IMG/VR virus record: IMGVR_UViG_3300045988_151163 | Location: 10,857 to 74,856 of that record | DNA: 64,000 nucleotides | Strand: one strand, 5' to 3' | DNA from: a virus | Shown here: positions 16,201 through 55,778 of the stretch, piece after piece | How positions within the stretch are numbered: the stretch's first letter is position 1 | Layout: each line of letters begins with the position of its first letter | Translations under genes and position numbers: made by a program | The notes under the pieces: model-generated | Told to the model about the DNA's origin: nothing | The model's input: only the letters and a program-made list of their open reading frames with translations | Databases searched by the model: none

Positions 16201-17367
16201 CTTACTTGTCTCATTTACTGTTGGATCTTCGATAAACCAATAAACAGGCATTTTAGCATAAGAAGTCTCAAGTCCATTTAGAAATACCTTCAAATTGATT
16301 TTCTTTTCTTCAATAGAGGAAACATCTTGATTAGCAAAAAAAGGTCCATTCTCTGCTGTTAATACAACTTTATATCCGCCTTCAACTGTTTCAATATCTT
16401 CACAAACAGTTAATTGAATATCTTTTAATATAATATCAGCCCAAACATTTTTATCTGTTTTAGCTGGATCTTGCGGGAACCCATCAACAAAAGCAGTAAC
16501 TTTAATGCTTCTCTTTTTATCAAAAACAATTTCGTCTCCAAAATTAAGAACTAAATAATTAGTTTGATTAGACCAATTTGTTAATTCATATGGATTACCA
16601 TTAAAAACCTTAGAATCTAAATAAAATTCTTGAATGTCATCTTTTAAAATTCCATCTGCATTCTTTCTGCGGATTGGGATCTCAACCTTAATTCCATAAG
16701 AACCAGAAATCCTTTGTTCTTTTGCAATAGAGGTTTTAACATTCATATTTAATTTTAAGATATTATATCCACTATCAAAATATCCTTTTAATAAATCAGA
16801 CAAATCATATGGAACAATATCATTTATATCTATAGTTTCATCTTGATAAGATGCAAACTTAATTAAATTATAATTATTAAAAAGATTTTGACTTACTTCA
16901 ATTCTTTTTACTGTTTCTGCTGTTGTTTTATCTTCTCCAACCACTGTAACAGAAGGTGTTACAGAGTTTAAAATAACAAGAGGATTATCAAAATCTCCTC
17001 TTGGAACTAACACTAACACATGGTCACCAACTGAATAACTAGGCGTACTTGCATGCGCTTGCAATTTATCATTTTCTAAATATTTTACTCTATAGGTCGC
17101 GGTTCCTTGGTCCACTATCTCCATGACTTCCATCTCATAAGAAACATCACTTTGAACTGCGGATGCCGCGTTCTCTGACACTGAAGCTACAGCATCATAA
17201 ATTGAATTGGAGATATAGTCTGCTCCCTTATTCAATGAAGTATTGGAAGCTGCTTTAGTAAAATTCTCTTTTACTGTAGAATCAACTTGAAACTTAGTGT
17301 AGTCTGTTGCCAATACTCTTTCCTCCTTTTTCTCTTCTTTATTAGAATATGAAAAATTAAATCTCAT
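10264..17367 (-). CDS. giant tail protein (about 2368 aa): central coiled coil and four C-terminal about 65-aa repeats with G-x-I-(A/G)-(N/G)-W-T-(I/L) motif
   Basis: start placed at ATG 17365-17367 (MRFNFSY), 9 nt downstream of TATAAT of promoter 17377..17405; motifs GHIANWTLD, GHIANWTID, GTIGGWTIS, GQIGGWTIT. Confidence 0.55.
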   Translation of the reverse strand: MRFNFSYSNKEEKKEERVLATDYTKFQVDSTVKENFTKAASNTSLNKGADYISNSIYDAVASVSENAASAVQSDVSYEMEVMEIVDQGTATYRVKYLENDKLQAHASTPSYSVGDHVLVLVPRGDFDNPLVILNSVTPSVTVVGEDKTTAETVKRIEVSQNLFNNYNLIKFASYQDETIDINDIVPYDLSDLLKGYFDSGYNILKLNMNVKTSIAKEQRISGSYGIKVEIPIRRKNADGILKDDIQEFYLDSKVFNGNPYELTNWSNQTNYLVLNFGDEIVFDKKRSIKVTAFVDGFPQDPAKTDKNVWADIILKDIQLTVCEDIETVEGGYKVVLTAENGPFFANQDVSSIEEKKINLKVFLNGLETSYAKMPVYWFIEDPTVNETSKYYHRSAGVNWRCLNSRTEVLGEAQNDSSFVFNTTAGSVTISNQDIKHKSKIRCYVGTNEGQLWVYGELTISNLYSLIKEVNLYADKENNTYLENVGNVTLTCEVNYPNLYNNVVRDEELNYVWEQIDQQGRIISQDDFYSIIALNDKNITDGIYTTKISFPVSSLTSDMNIFKVYVYTNKKQASGSITAYPIETKQISIRTKEGQDFLVVLDNANVNYNYDADGDAPDSDNYDGLSLQKLEIKPVEFSIISAATGEEISKAEYDRVSWVWKVPINSLLKPNLVYFESINQDNTSAITKDDNYYYIRGNGANRSLQYKLASRYNAKSAQSLSSLTIIFGNTVLYEDVPIRFSKDGENGTNGTKYTAFVTYKIGDTEYRYGDIYVDDNGNEHPVKMRFVAVEDNDGTIDWYIYDLVSNTLKKCYSLSNNNYSHIKGDLYRLNVKVYKDGEEINTSASSQTGQANVSWNIFDSGEKQGLGWKENKYFCPFAISDSDASSCYIIPTNSDKNKLSQWTNENNVPYIIVQANISLSNLKATADQSTDDLNNIYNNDLHIYYDYPIEITRIKKPQTDFASDGSFKSFVPSLEGGFYNVLYTSAGNNPQYDDTENFRCESNLIGVDSKECNYSWSANSNIFLDKNMTIHEISVSEDNECPVAKPNPLFQSGDFYNYIKVKVDIENKILKDKLSKITSEKEELQKALDKNNSIYSNLELFLKACNLYQIEYLLKQSKEELQKRSECIDALQNIINAINNLDRDVSAQSNMSELTLSNGIKIGSSKSADTFIYNELNIINNIIISVLNTKTSVYGIGYNDGNDIESISSLFEDVFSRISTLYGNGIRTIIRKDINVLQSSIDAFNTFNQSIKNKTVTTNYSDFTAKLKNVVENENLAELAKQEEEYQKLLDTLGGYYVNITEYVSGNDVEKNYVDIWNIFVNFKQKLYSYGREIESDEILEQRGQLNQQYVLDLGKIEANKENIIISSEPIISYQNRTLSGKKYSEAKDIVQKRYEELTANENDNCSKEIAKIKANKDFTDEEKGKEIAVIRQHYAILTREKTLEKDNILKTLADDVKNTKIKSINSITEKYNTDLLKTYENSYLVPLQYLQEKYSTKTSELNTDIKNKNKEIADLNIGIESSQESVIIIRPINMKCNSYEIPGLNNWDGKKYYLSNNGEYMFCPQIGAGVKTNNNTFTGMFMGARTSVNRSMVSETENDLNLRNKDIGLFGYSQGIQSIFLDAKTGSAFMGMPGQGQIVISPNQAFASIYSGNYYKYDSKRKGYYSKKDGSFISEIDFNNLKTQEERDNYSSGQGMLINLTDGAIKSSYWNVNSEGKSTFTSGVIGGWEIGENTLSSVIKNNAQLVLDSGNSVGLTDANGPENRSPKIYSSDNTRKPHDTLDSMQPGFYLGSDGFSIGNTFKVSIQPSTGLRTQGTGILEVGNLSGAHWIIGQNLKGTSFIGHGASYLISKSFVNQSTDQSENNSSSVYIGTDGLSFGHNLELSAEGSLKIGSFKKNATTSDHFLVLEVDKKDISNASLRYNTDGIHDFKNNSLYVGTQGIRLGKESSKKNNRGVFEVESNGILWATAGHIANWTLDEYQLLSTNTVVIDGVTKPGLVLDSKKGYIAFIKEDFNKTGKGFYLGNEGLSLGDSFWVDRTGELLATKGHIANWTIDKDSIYVKSGDIKIFDIHPMTSGGYISYNTSGWNSSKLLDSTSGCFYLGTTGISLGPNPSPFRVNNLGELWSTRGTIGGWTISNSTLKGGSVTLNSNGSIIGSGWSFSTAGVLTCNDAIIGGVHFKTGSGEANWSGGQMTSGQIGGWTITTSSIYDTASGGGNIKFDTSGDFNILTDGESGIKGTGGDISMKGTTRVTASSGSNKMEITNTSGSLRVGSFGLSINASETSLSGSSKLRLSGGTELYLSSPKAIFNASGENIMIGSSTSLKNYIESVVNTVLKSKTIDFKTNTVYTGETEGHKHTYTKVVSATIS

Positions 17368-17376
17368 TCTTATTCT

Positions 17377-17417
17377 ATTATAACCAAAAATAGCGGAGAG
17401 GTCAAGTCCTCTCCGCA
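17377..17417 (-). promoter_or_regulatory. terminator hairpin after the tape measure protein (GCGGAGAGG/CCTCTCCGC + T-run) whose loop/stem carries the -35 (TTGACC-17-TATAAT) of the giant tail gene promoter
   Basis: read on minus strand. Confidence 0.5.
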
Positions 17418-17426
17418 TAATTTCTG

Positions 17427-20400
17427 TTATTTTCTAATTCCGTTCTTTTGTGCTGCAATATTTTTAAGATTAAGTAAAGCTTGTTCAATTTCTGCCGCAT
17501 TGTTAGCATTAGGGAATTCTGCAACAATGTTATAAACATTATTTTCTTCTTTATTGCTACCTGTTGTTGTTGAAACAGTTTTTCCTTGACCAATTTCATT
17601 AGTCATACTAGAAAGTCTTTCTCCAACTACATCAGAAATAGCATTTTGAATTGAAGAAATAATATTTGGCATACTTCTAACAATTTTTACTGCATCTAAA
17701 ATATTTTCTGTATCAGAAGCATTTAATACAAGTTCTTTTTGATGTAAAATACCAAGTCTACCATTATCACTATCTAAGCCATCTCCTTGAGACATAGGCC
17801 AATTTCCTGTATAACCACCAGTTTTTGCTCTAAAACGATAGCCTTTCTTTTGATCTCTGGTGGAAGCAGCAACTGTATAATTAGTATATTTTCTTTTACC
17901 TTCAAGTGTTTTCGCTCTAGCTATTAGCGTTGCAATTTGCCGACCCGCAGAATCTCTTGATGCATAAGCTGTATCATCTTCAACCATAATATTTCCGTCT
18001 CCACTATTATTAACAATCCAATATTTCATTTTATTATTGGATAAACTAGCAGTGGTTGATGTTGTTCCATCATATCCTCCACCTGAGCTACCGCCGCCTC
18101 CAGAACTACCAGATCCAGAATAACTATAATCTCCATAATTTGTTGCACTACTAAAAGTAGTTTGACTAGCAGTTGCCGCAGCTTGCATCAGAGATAAATA
18201 CTGTTGAATATTGTTAATAGCATCTTTGATAGATTGAACCACACCCTCCCAAGCAGTTTTAACTTGATCAACACTATTTCTTAAATTCTCTAATTGAGAA
18301 CTACTATCTGAAGCAAGTTCAGCAGTCTTATTCTTCAAATTATCTGTCTCATCTTCTGCTCCTCTAATCGCGCCTGATATACCATCTGGTCCAAAATCTT
18401 GTCCAGCTTTATCGGCAGTGTCTGAAACTTGTTCTTCATATTTTTGAGTTGCTTCAATTAACTTATCATTTGCATCTGTAACCATAGCTTTCACGCTAGA
18501 GCCATCATCGCCAGCCCATTTCTCAATCATTTGATCTGCGGCTGCATCCCAGATACCTTTACCTTCAACAAGAGAAGATTCAATACTATCTACAATACCG
18601 TTCATATTATCTCTAACAGCATCATATATGCTATTAAAATCACTGATATTGTTATCTGTAGCTTCTTTAATTAATCTCTGCTGTTCTGATGTCATAGATG
18701 CATAAGCTTCTTCATCTTGCTTGTAGATCTCAAGAGTCAAACCTAATTGAGCTTCTTGCAATCCAGACTTCGCGGTTGCCGCCTCACTGGCATATCCCAT
18801 CGACATTTCTTGGTACCATTTATCCAGATCTGCCATCTCTTGACTGTCCGCGCCGTATTTTTCAAGATACTCTTTTTTCTTAGATAAGTATTCTTGATCT
18901 AATTTTAATAAGTTTTCAATATTAGATTGATATGCTGTTTTAGATAACTCATAAAGTTCTTTATAAGAATCTAATAACGCTTGACGCTTACTAGCAACGT
19001 CGTCTTCATCTGCAACATATTGATAAGTCCAGTTACCTTCTTGATTTCTAGTAACTTTCATTGTATTTTTACTATTTTGAGCATCTTCTAAAGCAATTTC
19101 TTTTTGAAGAATATCAAATCTAGCATTTGCTGCATCAATATCATATTGAGTTAATTGTTTCTTTTCTCTTAAAGCTTTAAGCTCTTTTTCTTGGAACTCT
19201 AACAATTTCTGTTTAGCTTTTACACTCTTGGTGTCTGTAATAGCTTGATCGACATTAGCTTTAAAAATTTCTGTATTATAAGCTTTTTCTGTTGCATCCA
19301 TATACAAGTCTGCGGATTCTTTTAATCTATCCCATTGATCTTGCATATAGTCAAGTGTTGTTCCACCAGTTATTTTTTTCTCAAGAGTATCAATAGTAGA
19401 AGAAATAGTGTTTTGATATTGGTCTTTAATAAGATTTATTCTATCAAGTACTGCGTCATTTAAGTCTTGTTCACAATCACGCATCTTTTCATATGCTTCT
19501 TGATAAGCTTCACTTTCTTCTCCATAAGATTGTTTCGCGGCTTCAGCTTGTTCTGCCCAGAACTCCTTCTGCTGTCTCAAAGATTCGATTTGAGCGCCGC
19601 TATTATTGATTTGAGCAGAATATAATTGGTCCATCATATCATATGCTTCTTCTCCATAGATTAACTCTATAAGTTCAGCTTGATATTCAAGATTGTCATT
19701 TATTCTATCAAATTCATCCATTAAGTCTTCAAACTTATCTGCAGCTTGATCAATACCATCCATATAAGCATCCCAAGCATCTTGGAACAAATCTTTCATA
19801 TCTTTAGCATGATCCATCAAATCGCTTTGAAGTTCTTTAAGTCTGTCTTGAGCCTGAGAAATTGTTTCAAACATACCAGAATAACCCGTAGTATGTAAAT
19901 TCATAATTTCTCTTTCAACTACTCCTATAGCAGCTAGATCCGCGGCAATCGTACCATTATCACCTTGATATGTACTAAATGAAGCTACTATGTTTTTGCT
20001 CTTTTTACCAAGATCTTCATATACCTTAGTGAAATCTTCTTCCATTTCCGCCAAGAAGTCTTGCATATCTCTTTCAGCTTCAGAAAAATCAAGTTTAATT
20101 TTATAATCTTCTTCAAATATAGCTAAAGTATTTTCTCTTTGTTTCTTTTCTTCTTCTGCAATCGCATCAGCGACATCTTTCATTTCATCATATAATAAAG
20201 TATCATATCTTTCAATTTGTTTCTTAAAATCTTCATATTTTTGTTTGGCTATATCCATACCAGCTTCATCTAAAGAGCCTGCATTATATGCACTAACAGC
20301 TGCATTATAAGCATTTATTTGAGCTTGATATGCTGCTTCATAGTTAGTGATCTCACCAGTATCTTTAAATGCAACTCCAAAAGATTTAAGTCTGCCTTGT

Positions 20401-23400
20401 ACTTCTTGTGCTTCTTGAATTTGAAGTTTTTGTTTTTCCTTTTGTTTATCAATCTGTTGGTCTAATAATTTATTCTCTTCTTGTAAACTTTCAATAAGCT
20501 GTTTTCCGGACATTGTGCTTTGCTTATCTTCAAGTTTATCAAGTTCATCATTAATAGCTTCAAGAGCTTTATTAACAGACCAATATCTATCTACTTTGTC
20601 GTCAGTAAATTCTTCTTCTTTTTTAGAAGAAGAGCTTCCTCCGCCTCCACCTTTAGATGCGCCTGCTGACATACTCTTACCAAGATTTGCTCTAACATTG
20701 CCAATAGCAGCAAGTTTAGTAGATAAACTTTGCATAACAACTTTAGCTGCATCTTTATGCTTAAAGATACCATCTAATCCTGGAATTTCAGCTAATTGAT
20801 TAGCTAAATTAGCTGCATCAACTGTAGCACTTTGCATTTGCATAGCTAAATTATATACAGCTGTTTGTGCAGCACTCATTTTTTGCGCGCTGGAAGTAGC
20901 TGCATTTCCAGTTAATTCTTCTGCTAAAGCCAAATCATCATTAGCCAATCTTGCTAATTGAGACATAGCTTCATCAACAGCTTTAACCTCTGCTAAATCT
21001 AATTGCGCATTTGCCAATGTTTCTAATTGGCTTTGATTCATAGACATTTGTCCATTTTGAATCTGTAAAGCAGCTAAATACTGGTCATCCATATTTAGAA
21101 GAGTATTAAGATTATCAATAGTTAAGAATCCATTTTCATTATATGAATCCATTATGCTATTAAGAGAATTATATGCACCTTGAATGCTACTTAATTCTCC
21201 TGTGATATCACTCATTTCTTCTTTAGCTTTTTCATGCACAGCAGTCCAAACTTCTACTTGATCAACATTGTCTTCAGTAGAATTGTTTAAATCATTTTGT
21301 GCTTTATTTAAACCGTTTGAAACATTAGTTAAGTCTTCTCCTTCATCAATAGCATCTTTCCATGCTTTAATTTGATCTTTATTAACACCTATTGTTTCTG
21401 AAACAATATCTATTGCATTTTTTTCTTCATCTGTTAAACTATCAAATCCATCTTCTTTTAATTTTTCTATTGCTGAAGTAGCTTTTTCAATATCATCAAC
21501 ATTTAAAAAAGAATCTAATCCAGGAAAACTTTCTATTTCTTCTTTTATGTTTCCAAGGGCACCTTCTAATGTTTTAAAATTTTCTATTGCAGTTGAATAA
21601 GTTTTGTCAACAGAGCCAGAGTAATCTACAGAAGAACCTTCTCCCCTTTTGATAGTACCTTCTTGGGTTTTTTCATAGCCAGTATAGCTATAACTCGTCA
21701 TTCCTTCAACTTGACTTTGAGTAGTTAATGATTCATTATTAGCTTTAGCTTCTGCATTAACTCTATCTTCAATAGCTTGAGTTAACTCTTTTTCTTTTTC
21801 TATTCTTATATCATAAAAAATTTTTAATTGAGCAATTTGTTCTGATGAATCTAATTTTTCAAAATCTTCTTGAGTGCCAAAATAATCTTGAATACCTTGA
21901 TCGGCGAATAAACTATCAATTTGTTCTTGAGTTAACTCGCCATCTTCTAAATTCTCAAGAACGCCACCCGCAACAGTAGCAGAACTTCTAACCTCGGCTA
22001 GTACAGAAAAATCACCTAAACCATCTATTTGTTTCTGAAGATTTTCTCCTGCATCTTCTGGTAAAACTAAATCAATATTATCAAGAATAGCTTTTGCATC
22101 TGAATCAGATATGCTTGCCATTATATCTTGAACAGTTTTTTCTGCATATCCTTTTTCTATCAATGCTCTAGATGCTTCATATTTAGAAGAATATTGTAAT
22201 AAAGCATCATTTCTAGCTGTCAAATATGTAATGGCATACTGTCTTGCATCTTCTATAGCTTTTTTATTTTCTTCTTTGCTGTAATCTTCTCCTTCGACGC
22301 CTTCTTCTTTTTTCCACCCATAAGTTGATCTTGTTTTTTCTACAATAGCAGAAATACCTTTTTGATAATCTGTATATGAAACATCTTTAGAACCTAAATT
22401 CTTATTATTAAAAACTTCATTTGCAGAATTTTCTCTTTCTGCTGTTTTTCCTTTTGTCTCTGCGTCTTCCCAATTCGTAATAGCAGTTGAAATGGTTTCT
22501 GAATTTAACAATTCTGAAATTTGCTTAGAAGCCATTGAAGGATTTTCATTCAGAATTTTTACTAATTCTGCATTATTTTCTGTTGCAACTTTAGTTAAAC
22601 TTTCTACAGTAATATGATTACTATCAGTAAATCTGATACCTAATTTATCTAATTCTTGAGCCAATTTCTTTTCGCTATCATTTCTACTCATCATACCTTG
22701 TAGATCTAAAGTATCTTGACCTTGACCAACTCTATCAATTCTAGCACCAGCTTCTTTAACTATATTGGCACTAATAGAAGCAGTCTGTTTTTCTTTTTCT
22801 TCAGAAGTAGCTTCTTGTATATCTACATTGCTATCAGTTTGAACTTGCTTTATAATATTATCTAATTCTTCATAATCCGCGGTAAGCGCTTGTACTGCCG
22901 CACTCTGAATACCGTGTTGCTGACAAAGTAAATAAACTTGTTGTCTAAAAGCTTCTAAGTTATTTTTCTTATATTGCTCTTTTAATGATTCGTAACTAGA
23001 AACTAATTCATTAACAGATTCTTTTTGTTCTTCCGTTGCTAATGTAACTTCATGAGCTGCATTTGCTGCATTTTCTGCTGCCTTTGCATCTTCTTCAACT
23101 GCTTTTTTGTGAGCTTTGTAAAGTGCAATACCTCCAATTACTGCTGCGGTTACGAGAGCCATAGCTCCACTAACTATGCCTATAGCAAGTCCTAAAGAAT
23201 GTGTTGCTGCTTGATTTTTAATTTTTTCTATTGTATTTAATTTTGTTACAGCAGTATTAGCTGTTGTAGCTACTGTTGCTTTTGCTTCAATTCTTGCAGA
23301 TAAACTTAAAACCGCATTTTTTACTTTTTCAGCTGCTGTTTCAGCCAAAGTTGCAATTCTATTTGATTCTTTTACAGCAATAAAAGTCTCATAAACGCTA

Positions 23401-26087
23401 ATCAATGAAGGAATTATCATGGCTAATGACATAAAAGATTGTTCCACTTTTTCTGTTAAAGTTAAATCATCATTTGAAAAAATATTTCCTAAATTTCTAA
23501 TTTGATTTATTGCCATTGCTAATTGACCAAGAGAACCTACAACCTGTCCAATTTGTTGCATCGTGGTTTTTTGATTAAAAGCTTTAACCAATTCTTCTCG
23601 AAAAGAAATCAATCCTTTTTCAGTTTTTTGAATTTGCCCTTGCATTTGTTCAAGACCAGCTAAGTTTCCAGCTTGTGTTCTTGCTTCTTTAAAAACATTT
23701 TCTAGTACATCATCAAGAGCTTTTCCTTGTCGTGCTGCTTCTTTAGCTCTTTCTGCTAAATTATTAAAAAAATTATCAACCTCTGCTTGAGGTAAATCTA
23801 ATTCTTGAATATTAGATATAAAATCTTTATCTTGTTTTATTTTAGAAATTTTAGCGTCAATAGCTGATTCTTTAGCTTGAGTATCTAATTCTTTAAAATC
23901 TTCTTTTAAAGCTTTTAAATCAATAGTGGTAATTTTATCATCAACTTCTTTAATTATAGTTGAAATTTGAGACCACTTATCTTTAAAAGCATCTCCTGAT
24001 TTCATAATTTCTTTAATACTTGGTAATACTCGTTCATCAGTTTTTATTAAATTGCTCATTGCATCTTCTATCTGATTATTTCCAAAAGCATCAGTAGTCA
24101 TTGAAGTGCCGAGATTTTCACCCTCTATTGTATTAGCTATTTTTAAAAAGGTGTTTATTTTTTCTAAATCTTTAGATCTTCTTTCAGTAGAAGCTTCTAA
24201 TGATGTATCTATATCTAATAAACCTATTAAATTATTTTTTTGTTTAGTAATAGCTTCAACTTGTTCACTATATTTAACAGTCATTTCAGCTTGAGCAACA
24301 ATTTTTTTATTTAATAAATTTATTTGTTTTTCGTCTTCTGCTGTTAAGTATTTATTATTTTCAATTAAATATTGATTATTAGCTTTTAATTGAGCAGTAG
24401 CATCTGCAACGGCTTTCCCGCCCATGCTTTCTGGATTTTGAATATATGCATTTTGAGCAATTTCATTAAATTGATCTAAAGCAGGCATAGAATTCTTTAA
24501 TGCTTCTAAATTAGTTCTTGTATCTTTAATATTATTTGCAATATTAAGAATACTTTCACTAATTTTCCCACTAAAAGTCTTCAGCATTAAAGGAGCAACA
24601 AAAGACAGTATACCCTTTAAACCACCTGCTGTTTTAACAAAATTATCTACAACTTCTAATAACTTAGTAGCATCTTCAGTTAAGTCTTTAATACCTTCTG
24701 TATCAAATAAATCTTGATAAATTGTTTCAGCAGTTGCTCTTAATATTTCAAGCTTTTTATTTAAAGACTCCAAAGCAATATCTTGCTGTTCTTGCAACGT
24801 ACCAGCAGCATTTTGAGATACAGCTAGAGTATCTTGATACATACTCCAGTTATTAAATAATGCAGTTAAATTATTATACTGTCTTTTACCTGCCATAGCT
24901 ACTGCAATAGCTTGACGCTGAGCTTCCGTCCATCCTTGCCATTTCTCAGCAACCTCTTCCATTACAGTACCCATTTCTCTTAAGTTGCCTGTTTCATCCA
25001 GAACTCTAATACCAACAGACTCAAGAGTACCGGATACTTCACCAAGAGTAGTACCAAATTCATCAACGCCATCAACTTGTAAGTCGCCCATACGAGCATA
25101 AATTGTTTTAAGAGCAGTACCAACAGATTCTGGTGCTTGTCTTGTTACAGAAACAATAGTAGCAACTTGGGCAGATAACTGATCAATATTAACACCCATC
25201 ATAGACGCGGATGACGCTACTTTAGACATAGCTGTAGCCAGCTCTTCCAGATCTGATGCAGTTGCCGCACCTACTGCCGCCAACTTATCTACATATTCTT
25301 CATATATACCGAAGCCCTTTTCTGCGGCTTCGTTTGCTACGTTGTAACCATTCCATACAGCTGTGAGTTGCTCAGACACTTCCGCCATAGATTGACCTGT
25401 TACATTAGCTGTCTTTGCAGTAATATCAGTTAAAGCTTTAACTGTATCATCATCAAGACCCTGTTGGTAATAAATCAAAGCTCCTTCAGTGTAATCTCTT
25501 GTTGAAACAGCAAGCGCTTTTGCGGCTTCATTCGCGTCTTTTGAGAAATCTCTCATTTGATCAGCCGACTGTCCAGTTACAATTCTAATATCATTTAAAG
25601 CAGTATCAAGATTTTTAATATAACCATAAGCTTGTTGAGTGCTACTAAGCATTTGATTCCATAAACCAGAGCTCAATCCCCACTTAACAGTATTTTTCAT
25701 GGTTTGAGCCATTTCGTCAACTAGTTTATTAGTTCTTTTAACTACACTACCCATCTGAGTAAATGTATTGGTTAAATTTAAGAAAGCTTTTTGACCTGAA
25801 GTCCCTGCATTTAATAAATTTTTGCTTATTGTTTGAATATCAGTACCATTTTGTTTTAATACTTTATTAAACTTTTCAAAATTAACTGTATTGATATTTG
25901 GATTATAAGCCTTTTCAAGTGCAAGTTCAATTTGATCTATGGATTTTAATATTTCTGAAGTATCCATATTTAATGGATGTTCAAAAACAGTAAATTCTTT
26001 TCTAACTTCATTTAAACTTTGCTTTAATTCATTAACACCTTTTAAATCTGCTATTGTCCGCAGTTTAAAATCTATTGTGTTAGCCAT
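17427..26087 (-). CDS. tail tape measure protein (2886 aa)
   Basis: very long, mostly helical/coiled-coil ORF with Gly/Ser linkers (GGGGGSSSSKKEEE, GSGSSGGGGSSGGG) directly upstream of tail tip genes; AAGGAGG SD. Confidence 0.8.
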   Translation of the reverse strand: MANTIDFKLRTIADLKGVNELKQSLNEVRKEFTVFEHPLNMDTSEILKSIDQIELALEKAYNPNINTVNFEKFNKVLKQNGTDIQTISKNLLNAGTSGQKAFLNLTNTFTQMGSVVKRTNKLVDEMAQTMKNTVKWGLSSGLWNQMLSSTQQAYGYIKNLDTALNDIRIVTGQSADQMRDFSKDANEAAKALAVSTRDYTEGALIYYQQGLDDDTVKALTDITAKTANVTGQSMAEVSEQLTAVWNGYNVANEAAEKGFGIYEEYVDKLAAVGAATASDLEELATAMSKVASSASMMGVNIDQLSAQVATIVSVTRQAPESVGTALKTIYARMGDLQVDGVDEFGTTLGEVSGTLESVGIRVLDETGNLREMGTVMEEVAEKWQGWTEAQRQAIAVAMAGKRQYNNLTALFNNWSMYQDTLAVSQNAAGTLQEQQDIALESLNKKLEILRATAETIYQDLFDTEGIKDLTEDATKLLEVVDNFVKTAGGLKGILSFVAPLMLKTFSGKISESILNIANNIKDTRTNLEALKNSMPALDQFNEIAQNAYIQNPESMGGKAVADATAQLKANNQYLIENNKYLTAEDEKQINLLNKKIVAQAEMTVKYSEQVEAITKQKNNLIGLLDIDTSLEASTERRSKDLEKINTFLKIANTIEGENLGTSMTTDAFGNNQIEDAMSNLIKTDERVLPSIKEIMKSGDAFKDKWSQISTIIKEVDDKITTIDLKALKEDFKELDTQAKESAIDAKISKIKQDKDFISNIQELDLPQAEVDNFFNNLAERAKEAARQGKALDDVLENVFKEARTQAGNLAGLEQMQGQIQKTEKGLISFREELVKAFNQKTTMQQIGQVVGSLGQLAMAINQIRNLGNIFSNDDLTLTEKVEQSFMSLAMIIPSLISVYETFIAVKESNRIATLAETAAEKVKNAVLSLSARIEAKATVATTANTAVTKLNTIEKIKNQAATHSLGLAIGIVSGAMALVTAAVIGGIALYKAHKKAVEEDAKAAENAANAAHEVTLATEEQKESVNELVSSYESLKEQYKKNNLEAFRQQVYLLCQQHGIQSAAVQALTADYEELDNIIKQVQTDSNVDIQEATSEEKEKQTASISANIVKEAGARIDRVGQGQDTLDLQGMMSRNDSEKKLAQELDKLGIRFTDSNHITVESLTKVATENNAELVKILNENPSMASKQISELLNSETISTAITNWEDAETKGKTAERENSANEVFNNKNLGSKDVSYTDYQKGISAIVEKTRSTYGWKKEEGVEGEDYSKEENKKAIEDARQYAITYLTARNDALLQYSSKYEASRALIEKGYAEKTVQDIMASISDSDAKAILDNIDLVLPEDAGENLQKQIDGLGDFSVLAEVRSSATVAGGVLENLEDGELTQEQIDSLFADQGIQDYFGTQEDFEKLDSSEQIAQLKIFYDIRIEKEKELTQAIEDRVNAEAKANNESLTTQSQVEGMTSYSYTGYEKTQEGTIKRGEGSSVDYSGSVDKTYSTAIENFKTLEGALGNIKEEIESFPGLDSFLNVDDIEKATSAIEKLKEDGFDSLTDEEKNAIDIVSETIGVNKDQIKAWKDAIDEGEDLTNVSNGLNKAQNDLNNSTEDNVDQVEVWTAVHEKAKEEMSDITGELSSIQGAYNSLNSIMDSYNENGFLTIDNLNTLLNMDDQYLAALQIQNGQMSMNQSQLETLANAQLDLAEVKAVDEAMSQLARLANDDLALAEELTGNAATSSAQKMSAAQTAVYNLAMQMQSATVDAANLANQLAEIPGLDGIFKHKDAAKVVMQSLSTKLAAIGNVRANLGKSMSAGASKGGGGGSSSSKKEEEFTDDKVDRYWSVNKALEAINDELDKLEDKQSTMSGKQLIESLQEENKLLDQQIDKQKEKQKLQIQEAQEVQGRLKSFGVAFKDTGEITNYEAAYQAQINAYNAAVSAYNAGSLDEAGMDIAKQKYEDFKKQIERYDTLLYDEMKDVADAIAEEEKKQRENTLAIFEEDYKIKLDFSEAERDMQDFLAEMEEDFTKVYEDLGKKSKNIVASFSTYQGDNGTIAADLAAIGVVEREIMNLHTTGYSGMFETISQAQDRLKELQSDLMDHAKDMKDLFQDAWDAYMDGIDQAADKFEDLMDEFDRINDNLEYQAELIELIYGEEAYDMMDQLYSAQINNSGAQIESLRQQKEFWAEQAEAAKQSYGEESEAYQEAYEKMRDCEQDLNDAVLDRINLIKDQYQNTISSTIDTLEKKITGGTTLDYMQDQWDRLKESADLYMDATEKAYNTEIFKANVDQAITDTKSVKAKQKLLEFQEKELKALREKKQLTQYDIDAANARFDILQKEIALEDAQNSKNTMKVTRNQEGNWTYQYVADEDDVASKRQALLDSYKELYELSKTAYQSNIENLLKLDQEYLSKKKEYLEKYGADSQEMADLDKWYQEMSMGYASEAATAKSGLQEAQLGLTLEIYKQDEEAYASMTSEQQRLIKEATDNNISDFNSIYDAVRDNMNGIVDSIESSLVEGKGIWDAAADQMIEKWAGDDGSSVKAMVTDANDKLIEATQKYEEQVSDTADKAGQDFGPDGISGAIRGAEDETDNLKNKTAELASDSSSQLENLRNSVDQVKTAWEGVVQSIKDAINNIQQYLSLMQAAATASQTTFSSATNYGDYSYSGSGSSGGGGSSGGGYDGTTSTTASLSNNKMKYWIVNNSGDGNIMVEDDTAYASRDSAGRQIATLIARAKTLEGKRKYTNYTVAASTRDQKKGYRFRAKTGGYTGNWPMSQGDGLDSDNGRLGILHQKELVLNASDTENILDAVKIVRSMPNIISSIQNAISDVVGERLSSMTNEIGQGKTVSTTTGSNKEENNVYNIVAEFPNANNAAEIEQALLNLKNIAAQKNGIRK

Positions 26088-43250: not shown

Positions 43251-44129
43251 ATGCCAGCACATGATGATTTAGGAACTAGAATGAAAACTTTCTATGAAAA
43301 CGCATCTAAAACTTACCTTATGCACAGATGTCCTGTTGCCATTAGGCTAGATGGCCGCGCTTTCCATACTTTTACAAAAGGATTTCAGAAACCTTTTGAT
43401 GAAATATTGATGAAGTCAATGCAAAAAACTATGCAGTATCTTTGTAAGAATATCCAAGGATGCGTTTTTGGATATACTCAGTCAGATGAGATTACTCTTA
43501 TATTAGTAGATTATAAAAATTTAACCAGCACTGCGTGGTTTGATTATGACGTACAGAAAGTATGTAGTATTGCTGCAAGTATGGCTACGATGATATTTAA
43601 CAAGTATTTTTATGATAATGTATTTATGTACAATGCGACTGCTGCTGTTGATTTATCCAATAAAAAATATCCATTTAAAGAAGTATATTCTAAAGCAGTA
43701 AATAAAGGTGCAATGTTTGACGCAAGATGCTTTAATATACCAAAAGAAGAAGTAGCTAATTTAATTTATTGGCGGCAGTTGGATGCTATACGGAATTCAG
43801 TCCAGGCAACCGGACAAGCAAACTTTAGCCATAAAGAGCTACAAGGCAAATCTTGCGCAGACATAAAAGAAATGCTTAAAGAAAAAGGCGTTGATTGGAA
43901 TAGTCTTCCTTTAGAGTTTCAAAGAGGCTCTTGTTGTGTAAGAAATGCTGTTGCCATAAAAAAAGAACAAGTTATTTTCCCTAGTGGGAAAAAGATGATT
44001 AGATCTATTATAGAACTTAGAGATACATCCAAGCCAGAAAAAGCTTGGATTATAGATAAAGAAATCCCTATATTTAAAGGAAAAGATAGAAAGTATATTG
44101 AAGATTTAATTTTTATTGAGGAGGAATAA
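43251..44129 (+). CDS. Thg1-like protein (tRNA-His guanylyltransferase family 3'-5' nucleotidyltransferase)
   Basis: VAIRLDGRAFHTFTKGFQKPFDE and GYTQSDEITLIL match Thg1 catalytic palm motifs (compare human VVVRLDGRNFHRF...AKPND and AYGQSDEYSFVF); WRQLD matches the Thg1 WRQ.D. Confidence 0.8.
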   Translation: MPAHDDLGTRMKTFYENASKTYLMHRCPVAIRLDGRAFHTFTKGFQKPFDEILMKSMQKTMQYLCKNIQGCVFGYTQSDEITLILVDYKNLTSTAWFDYDVQKVCSIAASMATMIFNKYFYDNVFMYNATAAVDLSNKKYPFKEVYSKAVNKGAMFDARCFNIPKEEVANLIYWRQLDAIRNSVQATGQANFSHKELQGKSCADIKEMLKEKGVDWNSLPLEFQRGSCCVRNAVAIKKEQVIFPSGKKMIRSIIELRDTSKPEKAWIIDKEIPIFKGKDRKYIEDLIFIEEE

Positions 44130-44700: not shown

Positions 44701-44825
44701 GCACTAATTTTTACATAATCATTGGTTAGGCGGGGCAAACACTTTAGTGCGTTAAAGCATTGAAGCGCGCAAGAAAATGATAAAAAGAAGTAAAGAAAAT
44801 GATAAAAATTTTTTTACAAAAACAC

Positions 44826-45141: not shown

Positions 45142-45264
45142 AAGTAAAAACAAGGCAAGGGCGCAAGCTCTTGCCTTTAATAGTGCTTAACGCTTTAGTG
45201 CGTTAAAGTGTTAAAGCACTAAAGTATTGTATTTAAAAGAGTACAATTTATTTATAAAAAAAGC

Positions 45265-45611: not shown

Positions 45612-45621
45612 AAAAAAGTGC

Positions 45622-45650
45622 TTGACAAACAAAGCACAATCTGTTATACT
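45622..45650 (+). promoter_or_regulatory. early promoter (gene 45700), -35 inside hairpin GTGCTT/AAGCAC
   Basis: TTGACA-17-TATACT. Confidence 0.55.
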
Positions 45651-45891: not shown

Positions 45892-45956
45892 GAAGAAGGC
45901 AAAAGCCTTCTTTTTTTGTTCGTTCTGAATCGAACAAATGGTCTGGTGTCCGAACT

Positions 45957-45986
45957 ATTATAGCACACTACTAGCCAACTTGTCAA
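45957..45986 (-). promoter_or_regulatory. isolated minus-strand consensus promoter (faces terminator of gene 45700)
   Basis: rc TTGACA-18-TGCTATAAT. Confidence 0.45.
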
Positions 45987-46084
45987 GAGGAAAAATGTAA
46001 AAAAATAAAAAAATATCTTTCCTAAAACAGGTAAAGGATTTAATAAAAAACGCAAGCAAATTGTATCAATCTATTGAATAAAGT

Positions 46085-46486: not shown

Positions 46487-46607
46487 AGAAGATATAAAAA
46501 TCTTCTCTTTTTTAATGGGCATAATACTTTAGCGCGTTAAAGCGTTACAGTTCACTGCACTAAAGCGACTTCCGCAACCATCGAACACCTGGTCTGCTGC
46601 CCGAAAA

Positions 46608-46637
46608 ATTATACCACAGGTGACCGCACTTTGTCAA
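46608..46637 (-). promoter_or_regulatory. isolated minus-strand consensus promoter; followed on plus side by TTGCACAA..TTGTGCAA terminator 46646..46693
   Basis: rc TTGACA-18-TGGTATAAT. Confidence 0.45.
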
Positions 46638-46794
46638 GAGAAAATTTGCACAAATTTACAAGTTTTTTCAATCCCGAAATTGTGCAATTTTTTTATAAAA
46701 AACTATTGACTTTTGTTACCTAAAGTAGTATTATAATACTTGTAAGGAACAGAAACAACACGATAGCTGAAAACAGAAACTTACAAAAAAGGTG

Positions 46795-46985: not shown

Positions 46986-46995
46986 TAAAAAGGGG

Positions 46996-47024
46996 TTGAC
47001 AAACCCCACAAGGTATGGTATAAT
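46996..47024 (+). promoter_or_regulatory. early promoter (gene 47062), -35 inside GGGGTT/AACCCC hairpin
   Basis: TTGACA-17-TGGTATAAT. Confidence 0.6.
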
Positions 47025-47838: not shown

Positions 47839-47907
47839 AGGGATAGTAGGCTAAATGGCAAACCGCTAATGCGCATAGAAACAAGAGTTCGATTCTCTTC
47901 TATCTCA
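47839..47907 (+). ncRNA. tRNA-like fragment (acceptor GGGATAG/CTATCTC + T arm AAGAG-TTCGATT-CTCTT, degenerate D/anticodon arms)
   Basis: canonical T-loop and 7-bp acceptor pairing but no foldable anticodon arm. Confidence 0.3.
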
Positions 47908-48465: not shown

Positions 48466-48600
48466 ATGGAAATTATAATTGCTTTTGGTTGCGGATGCGT
48501 GTTTATTATACCGCCATTGATCGCGGCAAGTGTCAGCGATGCAGTTCAGCGCAAGAAAAAACGCAACGAAATTTTGAAAAATTTTGGAATTAAGCCTTGA
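48466..48600 (+). CDS. 44-aa membrane peptide
   Basis: SD GGAAGAGGT; hydrophobic core. Confidence 0.4.
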   Translation: MEIIIAFGCGCVFIIPPLIAASVSDAVQRKKKRNEILKNFGIKP

Positions 48601-48625
48601 CAAATTAGTCAAGGCATGGTATAAT
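48597..48625 (+). promoter_or_regulatory. early promoter (gene 48658); -35 embedded in perfect palindrome GCCTTGAC-N6-GTCAAGGC
   Basis: TTGACA-17-TGGTATAAT. Confidence 0.6.
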
Positions 48626-48657: not shown

Positions 48658-48843
48658 ATGAAAGTTGCAAGAAAGATTACTGTTCCAAAAAAAGAATATG
48701 AGGTTCTCGATAAATTTCTTGATATGTGTAATGAAATAGGATTAGAAACTGATGAGCTTGTTGATTTGCTTAATGCAATTTCTAATAAAGATTCAGAATT
48801 TGACTGGGCAGGGATTACATATGATATTGAGTACTTAGCTTAG
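48658..48843 (+). CDS. hypothetical 61-aa protein
   Basis: promoter 48597..48625; terminator 48842..48867. Confidence 0.55.
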   Translation: MKVARKITVPKKEYEVLDKFLDMCNEIGLETDELVDLLNAISNKDSEFDWAGITYDIEYLA

Positions 48844-48879
48844 GGGCTATATAGCCCCTAATTTTTTTACAACAAAAGC

Positions 48880-48957
48880 TTGACATATCGCGGCAGTTGT
48901 GATATAATGGAATTTTGAGATGAAAATACCCTAGAAAAAATTTTTCATTTTTCTCTT
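48880..48957 (+). ncRNA. promoter (TTGACA-17-TATAAT) followed after about 10 nt by hairpin+T-run terminator: predicted about 45-nt non-coding transcript
   Basis: no ORF; TGAAAAT/ATTTTCA stem + TTTTTCTC. Confidence 0.4.
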
Positions 48958-49048
48958 GACAAATTAAATGAAATATGATATACTGGGCGGCCCGCGCACC
49001 ATCGCAGCGGGCCGAAATATTATACCACACATGACTCAGGTTTGTCAA
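48956..49048. repeat. convergent-promoter unit U2: plus promoter 48956..48984, GC hairpin 48985..49014, minus-strand promoter 49019..49048
   Basis: TTGACA-17-TATACT; GGGCGGCCCGCG..CGCAGCGGGCCG; rc TTGACA-18-TGGTATAAT. Confidence 0.6.
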
Positions 49049-49066
49049 GACTAATTTTCAAAAAAG

Positions 49067-49113
49067 TTATCCACAATTTACTATCCCGAAATTGTGGATA
49101 ACTTTGTGGATAA
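49067..49113. promoter_or_regulatory. three consensus DnaA boxes (TTATCCACA at 49067..49075; TGTGGATAA at 49094..49102 and 49105..49113), two forming a hairpin with TCCCGAA loop
   Basis: exact match to TTATNCACA consensus, 3 copies in 47 bp. Confidence 0.5.
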
Positions 49114-49119
49114 CTCCTA

Positions 49120-49148
49120 TTGACAAATAGGATTCTATGCGGTATAAT
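49120..49148 (+). promoter_or_regulatory. early promoter (gene 49183)
   Basis: TTGACA-17-TATAAT. Confidence 0.55.
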
Positions 49149-49182: not shown

Positions 49183-49326
49183 ATGATGGTATTTGAAGTT
49201 ATGGGGTACACGATAGTTGGATATGGGTATCGCTGGACAGTCACCCGCAATGGTGTACACGTTGGTACATATTCTGATACATGGGTAAATATCAGAAATG
49301 CAATTATTTTGAAAAAAATCAAATAA
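49183..49326 (+). CDS. hypothetical 47-aa protein
   Basis: promoter 49120..49148. Confidence 0.4.
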   Translation: MMVFEVMGYTIVGYGYRWTVTRNGVHVGTYSDTWVNIRNAIILKKIK

Positions 49327-49330
49327 GGGG

Positions 49331-49359
49331 TTGACAAATACCCCTAAACATGGTATAAT
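49331..49359 (+). promoter_or_regulatory. early promoter (gene 49394)
   Basis: TTGACA-17-TGGTATAAT. Confidence 0.6.
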
Positions 49360-49871: not shown

Positions 49872-50105
49872 ATGAGAGAAGTTATTTATAAGGTAACAAA
49901 GCCAGGACGTGTAGGTTTTGCAAAACGCAAAACCCTCGAACATGCACAGAGAACTGCACAGAATATCCACGGAGAATACAAGGCGATTCTTGTAGACCCC
50001 GAAATTGCAACAAAGACTTTGATTGCAAGTTCGCCTATGCGTCAGCGTATGATTGCACAGTTTGGAAGAGTGCACCCTAGTTTGAAAAATAGGGTTGACA
50101 AGTAG
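49872..50105 (+). CDS. hypothetical basic protein (77 aa)
   Basis: SD AGAGGGGT 8 nt upstream. Confidence 0.5.
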   Translation: MREVIYKVTKPGRVGFAKRKTLEHAQRTAQNIHGEYKAILVDPEIATKTLIASSPMRQRMIAQFGRVHPSLKNRVDK

Positions 50106-50123
50106 TCAACCCTATGGTATAAT
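50095..50123 (+). promoter_or_regulatory. early promoter (gene 50149); -35 in palindrome GGGTTGAC-N5-GTCAACCC
   Basis: TTGACA-17-TGGTATAAT. Confidence 0.6.
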
Positions 50124-50632: not shown

Positions 50633-50724
50633 TTGACAAAGTTCCTTTGATATGATATAATGGCGGCGCGCTTGCGGTTGGGGCGCGCCGCAATATTATA
50701 CCACATGTACCCGCAGTTTGTCAA
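50633..50724. repeat. convergent-promoter unit U3: plus promoter 50633..50661, GC hairpin 50662..50691, minus promoter 50695..50724; terminator 50743..50779
   Basis: TTGACA-17-TATAAT; GGCGGCGCGC..GCGCGCCGC; rc TTGACA-18-TGGTATAAT. Confidence 0.6.
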
Positions 50725-50911
50725 GACTAATTTTTGAAAAAATTGCACAAAAATTTTTCTCCCGAATTGTGCAATTTTTACGAAAAGAATCTGATAAAAA
50801 ACGCAAGAATTTTGTATCAATCCATGCTTAAAAGTAGTATTATAATACTTGTAAGGAAGAGATAACAACATGATAGTTGAAAACAAACTTCCTAAAGAAA
50901 ATAAAAAAATG

Positions 50912-52344: not shown

Positions 52345-52716
52345 ATGGAAAAGAAGATTACACAGAAGGAAATGTTCAATGAGGTTATCGCACTTGCTAC
52401 TGCAAACGGTAGAGAGGACATTGTGAAGTTTGCCGAGGAAAGAATCGCGGCACTCGATAAGAAGTCCGCAAACCGTAAGCCATCGAAGAATCAGACTGCA
52501 AACGAGGAAATCAAGGCTAAAATCCTGGAGTTCCTTGAGGGTTCGGACGGAAATACTTGTACCGAAATCAAAGATGGTCTTTCCGGTGACTACTCACTCA
52601 ATAAGATTGTAGCACTGATGACGCAGTTGTCAGGCGGTGCAAAGCCAAAGGATGGTGTTGAGTATCCAGTGGTTAGATTTGCTGAGGGTAAGGTGGTTAA
52701 GTTCCGCCTTGCCTAA
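52345..52716 (+). CDS. hypothetical protein (123 aa), paralog of the 55380 gene; winged-helix-like
   Basis: shares ANRKPSKNQTANEEIKAKIL...CTEI...YSLNKIVALMTQL with 55380..55778; high GC; promoter 52281..52309. Confidence 0.55.
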   Translation: MEKKITQKEMFNEVIALATANGREDIVKFAEERIAALDKKSANRKPSKNQTANEEIKAKILEFLEGSDGNTCTEIKDGLSGDYSLNKIVALMTQLSGGAKPKDGVEYPVVRFAEGKVVKFRLA

Positions 52717-52783: not shown

Positions 52784-52921
52784 GGGGATGTAGCTCAGTG
52801 GTAGAGCGGTGGCTCGTTAAGCCACGTCACATTGATGATACCCCTCTAAAAGCACTTTTGACTTAATCAACCAAGGGTGGGCGTTAGAGACGGGGCGAGA
52901 GTTCGATTCTCTCCATTCCCA
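52784..52921 (+). tRNA. aberrant tRNA-like gene: canonical acceptor, D, anticodon (loop UCGUUAA, GUU=Asn, C at position 33) and T arms, but a 71-nt insertion at the variable-loop position (52826..52896)
   Basis: GGGGATG/CATTCCC acceptor pairing, D arm GCTCAGTGGTAGAGC, anticodon stem GTGGC/GCCAC, T arm GAGAG-TTCGATT-CTCTC; driven by promoter 52742..52770. Confidence 0.45.
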
Positions 52922-54946: not shown

Positions 54947-55038
54947 TTGACAAACAATAGAAAGTATGCTATAATGGCGCGGCGTGCACGCTCCTCGCAC
55001 GCCGAGATATTATACCACATAGCTCTGGCATTTGTCAA
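54947..55038. repeat. convergent-promoter unit U5: plus promoter 54947..54975, GC hairpin 54976..55006, minus promoter 55009..55038; terminator 55047..55093
   Basis: TTGACA-17-TATAAT; GGCGCGGCGTGC..GCACGCCGAG; rc TTGACA-18-TGGTATAAT. Confidence 0.6.
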
Positions 55039-55099
55039 TAGGAAAATTGCACAAATTTTTTAACCTTGTGCATCCCGAATTTTGTGCATTTTTCCGATA

Positions 55100-55330
55100 T
55101 TGATTTTCTATAAATATTTTGTTATAATGTATTTACAAGGTAAGGAAAGAAAACAAAATAGCAACCTCGGTCGTGAGGAAAACAAATTTTGAAACTTTCA
55201 AAAACCTATTGACAAACATTAAAAAATATGTTATAATAAGCATGTAAGGTCAAGGAAGATTAAAGGTTCTAAACCGAAAAGAAAATAATAAAAAAAAATG
55301 CTTGACAAACCTTACAAAATATGTTATAAT
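55100..55330 (+). promoter_or_regulatory. three tandem promoters (55100..55128 TTGATT-17-TATAAT; 55209..55237; 55302..55330) separated by about 70-100 nt non-coding spacers, upstream of gene 55380
   Basis: each with 17-nt spacing and TRTG extended -10. Confidence 0.5.
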
Positions 55331-55379: not shown

Positions 55380-55778
55380 ATGACAACAACAAACAAGACA
55401 ACAAAGAAGCAGTACTTTGAAATGATTATGGCTATTGAGGGCGTGTCCGAGGATATTAAGGACTTCTGTGCAAGAGAGATTGCAACCCTTGAGAAGAAGA
55501 ACGCCAACCGTAAGCCGTCTAAGAATCAGACCGCAAACGAGGAAATCAAGGCGAAGATTCTTGATGTACTTGAGGACTCTAAGCCTATGACCTGTACAGA
55601 GATTATGACCGCCTTTAATGGCGAGTATTCACTCAATAAGATTGTAGCACTGATGACTCAGCTTGCTGGTCCAGCAAAGGATGAAAACAGAGATGCTACT
55701 AAGGTATATCTTGTTCGCCGTATTCCAGATGGTAAGAAGATGACTTTCGCCCTTAATACCGAGGGTATCGAGGGTTAG
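55380..55778 (+). CDS. hypothetical protein (132 aa), paralog of 52345..52716
   Basis: shared core motif; three tandem promoters upstream (55100, 55209, 55302). Confidence 0.55.
   Translation: MTTTNKTTKKQYFEMIMAIEGVSEDIKDFCAREIATLEKKNANRKPSKNQTANEEIKAKILDVLEDSKPMTCTEIMTAFNGEYSLNKIVALMTQLAGPAKDENRDATKVYLVRRIPDGKKMTFALNTEGIEG

Follow-up and report, generated by a model that had tools for sequence, protein, structure and literature searches.

Three consensus DnaA boxes occupy the position of a conserved promoter-upstream element in an early cassette of a gut phage and form a candidate DnaA-binding module

DnaA boxes in phages are usually read as replication origins. For a cluster of three perfect boxes at 49067-49113 of the window (the whole 64,000-nucleotide stretch of phage DNA analysed here), the context points to a promoter-coupled role. 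The window is part of a phage of ~140-145 kb that is present in human-gut assemblies. Among deposited phages the closest relative is phAss-1 (40% identical in the portal protein), for which Clostridia are the predicted hosts (PMC10607447). Structural genes (terminase, portal, phage sigma factor) occupy 1-42.4 kb on the minus strand, and this module holds two adjacent giant minus-strand ORFs, at 10264-17418 (2384 aa) and 17427-26087 (2886 aa). The early region, at 42.5-57 kb, carries tiny plus-strand genes, a Thg1-like enzyme and several tRNAs. It also contains most of the 39 perfect TTGACA-N16-18-TATAAT promoters of the window, where 0.13 are expected. Past the left end of the window (L316, 15917-21305) are genes for RuvC, dUTPase, an anaerobic ribonucleotide reductase (NrdD), guanylate kinase and a 1349-aa DNA polymerase III alpha, a set that fits an anaerobic host and phage-encoded DNA replication.

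An exact search found exactly three copies of TTATCCACA in the window, all of them within the cluster, which confirms that the three 9-mers noted in the preliminary description are perfect DnaA consensus boxes and the only ones in the window. Box 1 (49067-49075) lies on the plus strand and reads TGTGGATAA on the minus strand. Boxes 2 (49093-49101) and 3 (49105-49113) lie on the minus strand and read TGTGGATAA on the plus strand, with 3 bp between them. The starts given previously for the outer boxes, 49067 and 49105, are correct, whereas that of the middle box, given as 49094, is off by one base and lies at 49093. In the shuffled 64-kb window the mean was 0.71 copies of TTATCCACA. No perfect box was found in the 10 kb past either window end, and the cluster is the sole one of its kind in ~84 kb (the window plus 10 kb on each side). 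One-mismatch boxes were not enriched, either in the window (28 against 20.5 expected) or near the cluster.

Boxes 2 and 3 belong to the two copies of TTGTGGATAACT, a 12-bp stretch that is perfectly duplicated in tandem (49092-49103 and 49104-49115). Box 3 is thus the product of this duplication, and the three boxes effectively amount to one independent event, in which one box was mirrored and then duplicated. In the window, 52 hairpins have arms of 9 bp or more, which offer 118 nine-base registers, and ~0.0015 hairpins per window are expected to have a perfect box in their arms by chance. A chance origin of the box hairpin is therefore unlikely, and the match also agrees with the flanks and spacing of other DnaA-box arrays. 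All three boxes have an AG 5' flank, as do 195 of 399 independent boxes of phage contigs, and the 12 bp from start to start of boxes 2 and 3 (3-bp gap) is the commonest short spacing among phage-contig boxes. The cluster thus combines a match to the consensus 9-mer with a flank and a spacing that are typical of arrays. From established biochemistry, DnaA is expected to bind a perfect consensus box however that box arose, and the best explanation of the cluster is that it is a candidate high-affinity DnaA-binding module.

Boxes 1 and 2 were previously described as the arms of a hairpin. They do form its left and right arms, as part of a perfect 17-bp inverted repeat (49063-49079 pairing with 49089-49105) around the 9-nt loop ACTATCCCG. 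The fold z-scores of this hairpin are -6.3 as RNA and -6.5 as DNA, and its DNA fold has an energy of -19.8 kcal/mol. The motif TCCCGAA (49084-49090, plus strand), which is common to the cassettes described below, contributes to the loop and to the first pairs of the stem; the window has 8 copies against 2.5 expected, and four of the eight lie inside cassettes. The stem itself is strong, and it is followed by the tail CUUUGUGG, where the terminator scan made no call. In the sister units the stem is followed by T5-T7; at the box site this T-run is gone because the second box took its place. An Rfam search with a permissive threshold returned tRNAs only, together with chance palindrome matches of the hairpin to a microRNA family (E ~0.4).

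The cluster is embedded in a block of closely spaced promoters. At its left edge is the intrinsic terminator of an upstream 61-aa gene (48840-48861, plus strand; TTAGGGGCTATATAGCCCCTAA then T7), detected by the terminator scan. Promoter P0 (48880-48908, plus strand) consists of TTGACA, a 17-nt spacer and TATAAT with a TG extension and matches 12 of 12 consensus positions, while the TG-extended P1 (48956-48984, plus strand; TTGACA, 17-nt spacer, TATACT) matches 11 of 12. P1 faces P2 (49019-49048, minus strand; TTGACA at 49048-49043, 18-nt spacer, TGTGGTATAAT ending at 49019), and between these convergent promoters folds a GC-rich hairpin (48989-49013) with the stem GGCCCGC / GCGGGCC; in the related contig L001 one pair of this stem is changed from C-G to G-T. 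From its -10 position, P1 is predicted to start at ~48991, inside the arm of the GC hairpin. P2, a member of a conserved phage promoter class, has its predicted start at ~49012, about 20 bp from that of P1, and no ORF lies downstream of it. Back-to-back with P2 stands P3 (49120-49148, plus strand; TTGACA, 17-nt spacer, TATAAT), followed by a 47-aa ORF (49183-49326, plus strand) with no assigned function. The related contig L109 has an insertion between P3 and this ORF, consisting of another small gene together with a promoter of its own. The strong convergent promoters and the downstream promoter that the preliminary description placed around the boxes are thus present.

The -35 of P3 sits in the loop of a small hairpin, CCTATTGACAAATAGG. 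In many early plus-strand promoters the -35 TTGACAA likewise falls within the loop of a short, GC-containing hairpin (e.g. GGGGTTGACAAACCCC), and sites of this kind were located at 45618-45637, 46992-47007, 48593-48614, 49116-49131, 49326-49345 and 50092-50113. They are overlapping terminator/promoter modules and recall the promoter-early stem-loop cassettes of T4-type phages.

The unit that bears the boxes belongs to a family of paralogous cassettes, with 4-5 units in the window at ~45.9 (degenerate), 46.6, 49.0, 50.7 and 55.0 kb (45945-46060, 46596-46700, 48956-49113, 50633-50790 and 54947-55100). Their common order is a plus-strand promoter P1, a GC-rich hairpin, a convergent minus-strand promoter P2, an inverted repeat and then a T-run and/or the next plus-strand promoter, P3. 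P2 has an 18-nt spacer and the extended -10 TGTGGTATAAT, and the inverted repeat consists of TTGCACAAA, ~15-25 nt including TCCCGAA, and TTTGTGCAA. The unit at 48989-49113 conforms to this pattern in its TGTGGTATAAT extended -10, 18-nt spacer, TTGACAA, downstream GC-rich hairpin and TCCCGAA. It departs from it in lacking the family arms TTGCACAAA / TTTGTGCAA, in place of which it has TTATCCACAA / TTGTGGATAA. As the preliminary description had proposed, the boxes stand where the sister units have TTGCACAA / TTGTGCAA arms around TCCCGAA (46646-46687, 50743-50774 and 55047-55090).

The same cassette is widespread in large phages. A pattern scan of IMG/VR that demanded TCCCGAA matched 59 stretches, and one that used P2 and the left arm only matched at least 118; the cassette loci recorded are L081-L139 and L317-L404. 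The carriers are large phage contigs of 15-400 kb, with at least 115 non-redundant copies of P2-class promoters; TCCCGAA or TCCCAAA is found in ~42 of 115 copies when the search does not demand the motif. The promoter class may be written TTTGTGCAA-N8-TTGACAA-N12-TGTGGTATAAT-GGAAATTTCG, followed by a GC-rich hairpin that varies between copies, and a convergent promoter is often found opposite, with predicted starts ~20 bp apart. When the 57 nt downstream of 115 P2-class promoters were folded, the median predicted energy was -17.9 kcal/mol, and the copies inspected always had a GC-rich hairpin downstream of P2, with unrelated stem sequences. MAG contigs from gut and rumen, with labels such as Clostridia, Oscillospiraceae, Ruminococcus and Christensenella, contained about 20 genuine copies, about half of the matches in MAG and genome contigs being chance combinations of a promoter and TCCCGAA, including some in Poribacteria chromosomes. 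The cassette had no match in Rfam. Face-to-face promoter pairs with small antisense RNAs are known from P22 (Pant/Psar), coliphage 186 (pR/pL) and lambda (oop). The predicted promoters P1 and P2 converge in the same manner with no ORF after P2, a likeness that concerns the surrounding cassette and not the boxes. The cassette may encode paired small RNAs or work as a promoter-interference switch, and may be worth study in its own right.

The arms of the family were considered as either a hairpin or a pair of sequence motifs. Of 67 cassettes, 49 have a left arm that departs from TTGCACAAA at no more than 2 positions, and in these 49 the distance from the arm start to the P2 -35 is 8 nt (37 cassettes) or 18-19 nt (8 cassettes). 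In the main cassette group the right arm precedes the P3 -35 by 7-10 nt. TTTGTGCAA is thus the usual upstream element of each of the back-to-back promoters, 8 nt from the -35. The left-arm element also precedes P2-class promoters that have no partner arm, where a terminator follows instead. Of 58 cassettes, 34 have arms separated by 24 nt and 12 have arms separated by 14-15 nt, two values that are one helical turn apart. Among deviations from the arm consensus, 103 cells lacked compensation, 5 showed it and 18 were G-U, so the arms act as sequence motifs, and a selected hairpin was rejected for the family. The arms are a pair of promoter-upstream motifs, and the family has an inverted repeat because two promoters of the same class with the same upstream element stand back to back. 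For this reason the TTGCACAA repeat, formerly taken as a terminator stem, is better described by its family-wide behaviour as a pair of promoter-upstream elements.

The family arms were also compared with known sites. They are not weak DnaA boxes: of 115 arms, only 13 conform to TTWTNCACA, and 97 have A at position 1. The sites of CodY, Rex, NrdR and CIRCE, considered for the arms, do not seem to fit, nor does that of Spo0A (TGTCGAA) for TCCCGAA. A literature search with the arm sequences found primers only.

DnaA boxes in the cassette arms are confined to one small clade (the W clade) with four sequence versions, namely the window itself, L001 (= L137), L109 (= L406, ENA ORUB01000053) and L405. 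The last was the one further version found by a metagenome scan anchored on the flanks. Among the cassettes examined outside the clade, no arm is within 1 mismatch of the box. The cluster is absent from 79 of 80 Thg1 loci and from all cassette loci except L109 and L137, which are W-clade contigs, and a nucleotide search of 47-51 kb against deposited phage genomes gave no match. Most of the Thg1 relatives (L003-L080) have no perfect TTGACA/TATAAT promoter within 20 kb, so the dense array of consensus promoters is confined to L001, L002, L024, L039 and L072.

The closest paralogue of the box unit (U3) is unit U4 at 50.7 kb. It has TT[G]CACAA where U3 has TT[ATC]CACAA in both arms, U3 having the duplication in addition, and the TTGTG core is 11 nt from the -35 in both. 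Judged from this comparison, the DnaA version is a derived swap of the family element. The non-coding block from 48840 to ~49170 is ~97% identical in L109, and the gene just upstream ~65%. In the 56 nt between the anchors the four versions show only 3 differences, all at 49079-49082 (loop and closing stem pair). The invariance of the boxes among so few and such close relatives is a weak signal, as three changes would all miss the boxes with a probability of ~0.14. W-clade arms stand out by their length and perfection and have A- and T-runs on either side, so that in this clade they may double as terminators.

Boxes upstream of promoters are not peculiar to this locus. For each orientation of the box, at least 120 IMG/VR stretches have one that precedes a perfect TTGACA-N16-18-TATAAT promoter by 3-20 nt (loci L407-L525 and L545-L625). 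The same scan with a composition-matched scrambled 9-mer gave 19, so that the box is at least 6-fold commoner, an enrichment measured against a single scrambled control and in 'viral' contigs of which some may hold bacterial DNA. Among the matches listed, the gaps between box and -35 are phased. Boxes that read TGTGGATAA towards the -35 cluster at 5-8 and 15-19 nt from it, with 6 nt the commonest gap, and boxes in the opposite orientation cluster at 8-10 and 17-20 nt. The three boxes of the window all read TGTGGATAA towards their own promoter; box 3 is 6 nt and box 2 is 18 nt from the -35 of P3, and box 1 is 18 nt from that of P2. These gaps fall at the distances favoured upstream of consensus promoters across phage contigs. 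No common function was seen among the genes downstream of DnaA-box promoters in other phages.

We tentatively propose, as a reading with a good though less than even chance of being right, that the cluster is a promoter-coupled DnaA operator that modulates transcription of the cassette. In one small clade, the DnaA boxes have replaced the TTTGTGCAA elements of P2 (minus strand) and P3 (plus strand), both sigma-A-type early promoters, and the boxes keep the positions and helical phase of the family element relative to both -35 elements. Host DnaA would bind the duplex boxes early in infection and either activate P2 and P3 or occlude them, which would alter cassette output. Bound DnaA may also, or instead, block read-through from the convergent P1, the box hairpin lacking the T-run of the sister units. 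The output of one early cassette could thereby be coupled to the host's level of active DnaA; the effect may be activation or repression, the sequence being compatible with either. Because the boxes stand at the upstream-element positions of two promoters and downstream of a convergent promoter without a T-run, a DnaA operator would be the most economical reading. Several points speak against it. The boxes do not overlap the core promoters, so that simple repression is not obvious. The 17-bp stem exceeds the need of a duplex operator pair and would fit a function in ssDNA or RNA at least equally, and the genes behind DnaA-box promoters in other phages have no function in common.

Promoters regulated by DnaA include those of E. 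coli dnaA, B. subtilis dnaA and sda, and phage lambda pR, and DnaA/box complexes block transcribing RNA polymerase, as at asnC. As in these systems, the boxes of the window lie near sigma-70/sigma-A promoters, where they are placed to touch or obstruct RNA polymerase. They differ in replacing another upstream element in a modular phage cassette, in serving two back-to-back promoters symmetrically and in forming a perfect 17-bp palindrome, and the regulation here is putative. DnaA boxes in phages, DnaA-box hairpins and DnaA-controlled promoters were all known already. The novelty lies in the place that the consensus boxes have taken over, which is that of the conserved upstream element in a widespread phage cassette shared by more than 100 large phage contigs. 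If DnaA controls these promoters, the phage would read host physiology through the host's replication initiator, and the phased arrangement of box and promoter across phage contigs would be a testable promoter class. A wider proposal, which we regard as doubtful, is that host DnaA has been recruited as an upstream factor by which a phage of gut Clostridia sets its early transcription according to the status of the host initiator, and that phased DnaA boxes upstream of sigma-70-type promoters represent a widespread, unrecognised host-sensing class. In a variant of this proposal, the same module would also load helicase on an R-loop formed from the convergent promoters.

The preliminary description had regarded the cluster as a candidate replication origin, a proposal that the analysis does not support, and a replication-related site seems improbable to us. 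It might be a transcription-activated origin, at which the RNA from P1 or P2 makes a stable hybrid (R-loop) over the GC-rich segment. It might also be a site of primosome assembly of the A-site type, where the inverted boxes fold in ssDNA, the stem rebuilds a duplex DnaA box, DnaA binds and helicase is loaded. The strong promoters and the GC-rich segment 50-100 nt upstream, which resemble the layout of ColE1, would suit the former, the 17-bp stem would give a duplex DnaA box on either single strand, and no other perfect-box cluster is found in ~84 kb. Helicase loading systems of Firmicutes differ from that of E. coli. The A-site or ABC primosome signal (R6K, M13-A-site ssDNA) is a hairpin with a consensus DnaA box in its duplex stem (PMC6127211). 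The window hairpin likewise has a DnaA box in its duplex stem as folded ssDNA. It differs from the A-site in its extra tandem box and its place between promoters, and its single-stranded state is putative. With oriC-type or DnaA-dependent origins (P1 oriR and the clusters of contigs L191, L174 and L151) the window shares perfect boxes in mixed orientation. Those contig clusters, however, are many-boxed or have AT-rich repeats, whereas the window has three boxes, flanked by promoters, and no unwinding element. When both flanks were read, no DnaA-trios (3-nt periodic CTA/TAG arrays) and no repeated AT-rich 13-mers were found beside the boxes, in contrast to L191 and L174, where AT-rich repeats do follow the box clusters. 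GC skew is steady at 49 kb, its sign changing at ~42 and ~57 kb, where gene orientation changes. No replication domain was recognisable in the ORFs at 42-74 kb, which leaves ~25 kb rightwards of the cluster clear, and the phage polymerase lies past the far window end. Boxes are missing from the sister cassettes of this genome and from the related cassettes found in phages outside the W clade. Absence of the boxes from relatives had been named in advance as evidence against an origin, and only the four near-identical versions carry the cluster.

The remaining alternatives concern what DnaA, if anything, would do at this site. The locus may have no DnaA role at all and give the P1 transcript a variant RNA stem or terminator, or it may be an altered upstream element that the recogniser of TTTGTGCAA still reads, with the DnaA match as a by-product. 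We consider this unlikely. The family arm does have a TTGTG/CACAA core in the same register, TTTGTGGAT is 2 mismatches from TTTGTGCAA, and few independent events would be needed, as a change in one palindrome arm can be copied to the other in one step. The W-clade sister arms are terminator-like (A-run, 13-15-bp stem, T-run), and the predicted fold of the P1 transcript has a hairpin at its 5' side and the box stem at its 3' side. At the box unit, however, the T-run is replaced by the second box and the terminator scan is silent. A by-product would also have to account for a 9/9 match occurring three times with the preferred AG flank and a 3-bp spacing, in a kind of hairpin of which ~0.0015 are expected by chance, and outside the W clade no arm comes within 1 mismatch of a box; a perfect box is, moreover, expected to bind DnaA regardless. 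Less probable still is a manipulation of the host initiator, either as a DnaA sink that shuts down host initiation or as a DARS-like change of the nucleotide state of DnaA. The DARS core of E. coli has three boxes, I and II opposed and II and III in tandem, with a 5-bp spacer between the opposed boxes (PMC6868365). The three consensus boxes of the window, oriented +, - and -, have this topology, and their copy number would climb with phage replication. The opposed boxes 1 and 2, however, are separated by 17 bp (49076-49092) rather than 5 bp, and DARS is chromosomal and known only from the E. coli lineage. Three boxes make a small sink, fewer than the four or five or more that, together with an IHF site, mark a datA-type titration locus, and one-mismatch boxes are not enriched nearby. 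This explanation also leaves unaccounted for the register of the boxes with two -35 elements. DARS and datA are not known to have been characterised outside the relatives of E. coli. A search of the literature on phage DnaA-box titration gave nothing relevant. Finally, it is very improbable that the cluster is an entry or anchoring signal, in which early non-coding boxes bind membrane-associated DnaA and so pause or anchor the entering DNA. In T5-like phages, DnaA boxes are paired 3 bp apart in the non-coding pre-early (iss) region, one inside an inverted repeat and one outside (bioRxiv 10.1101/866236). Boxes 2 and 3 show the same arrangement, in an early region rich in strong promoters. T5, however, has eight boxes, in two large repeat sets within the terminal repeat, against three here, and the present phage and its host are unrelated to those of T5. 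The function in T5 is itself a hypothesis only. Among these possibilities the promoter-coupled DnaA operator remains our preferred reading of the cluster.

Several further features of the early region were recorded. A near-palindromic 16-mer, CTTTAGTGCGTTAAAG, occurs in 3-4 copies against 0.77 expected (44742-44757, 45193-45224 and 46527-46542). The copies at 44742 and 45193 lie upstream of plus-strand promoters of a distinct subtype (GGCTTATAAT, without TG extension), and the 16-mer is a candidate operator for a phage regulator. A 125-nt direct repeat of 74% identity (52444-52568 and 55479-55603) lies inside two paralogous early genes, 52345-52716 and 55380-55778, which both match phrog_19455, a family with no assigned function. 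Two more tRNAs that ARAGORN had missed, at 47840-47907 and 52784-52921, were found with Rfam, near the gene for the Thg1-like tRNA-His guanylyltransferase (43251-44129). The second of them spans 138 nt against the 71-nt model and may contain an insertion or intron.
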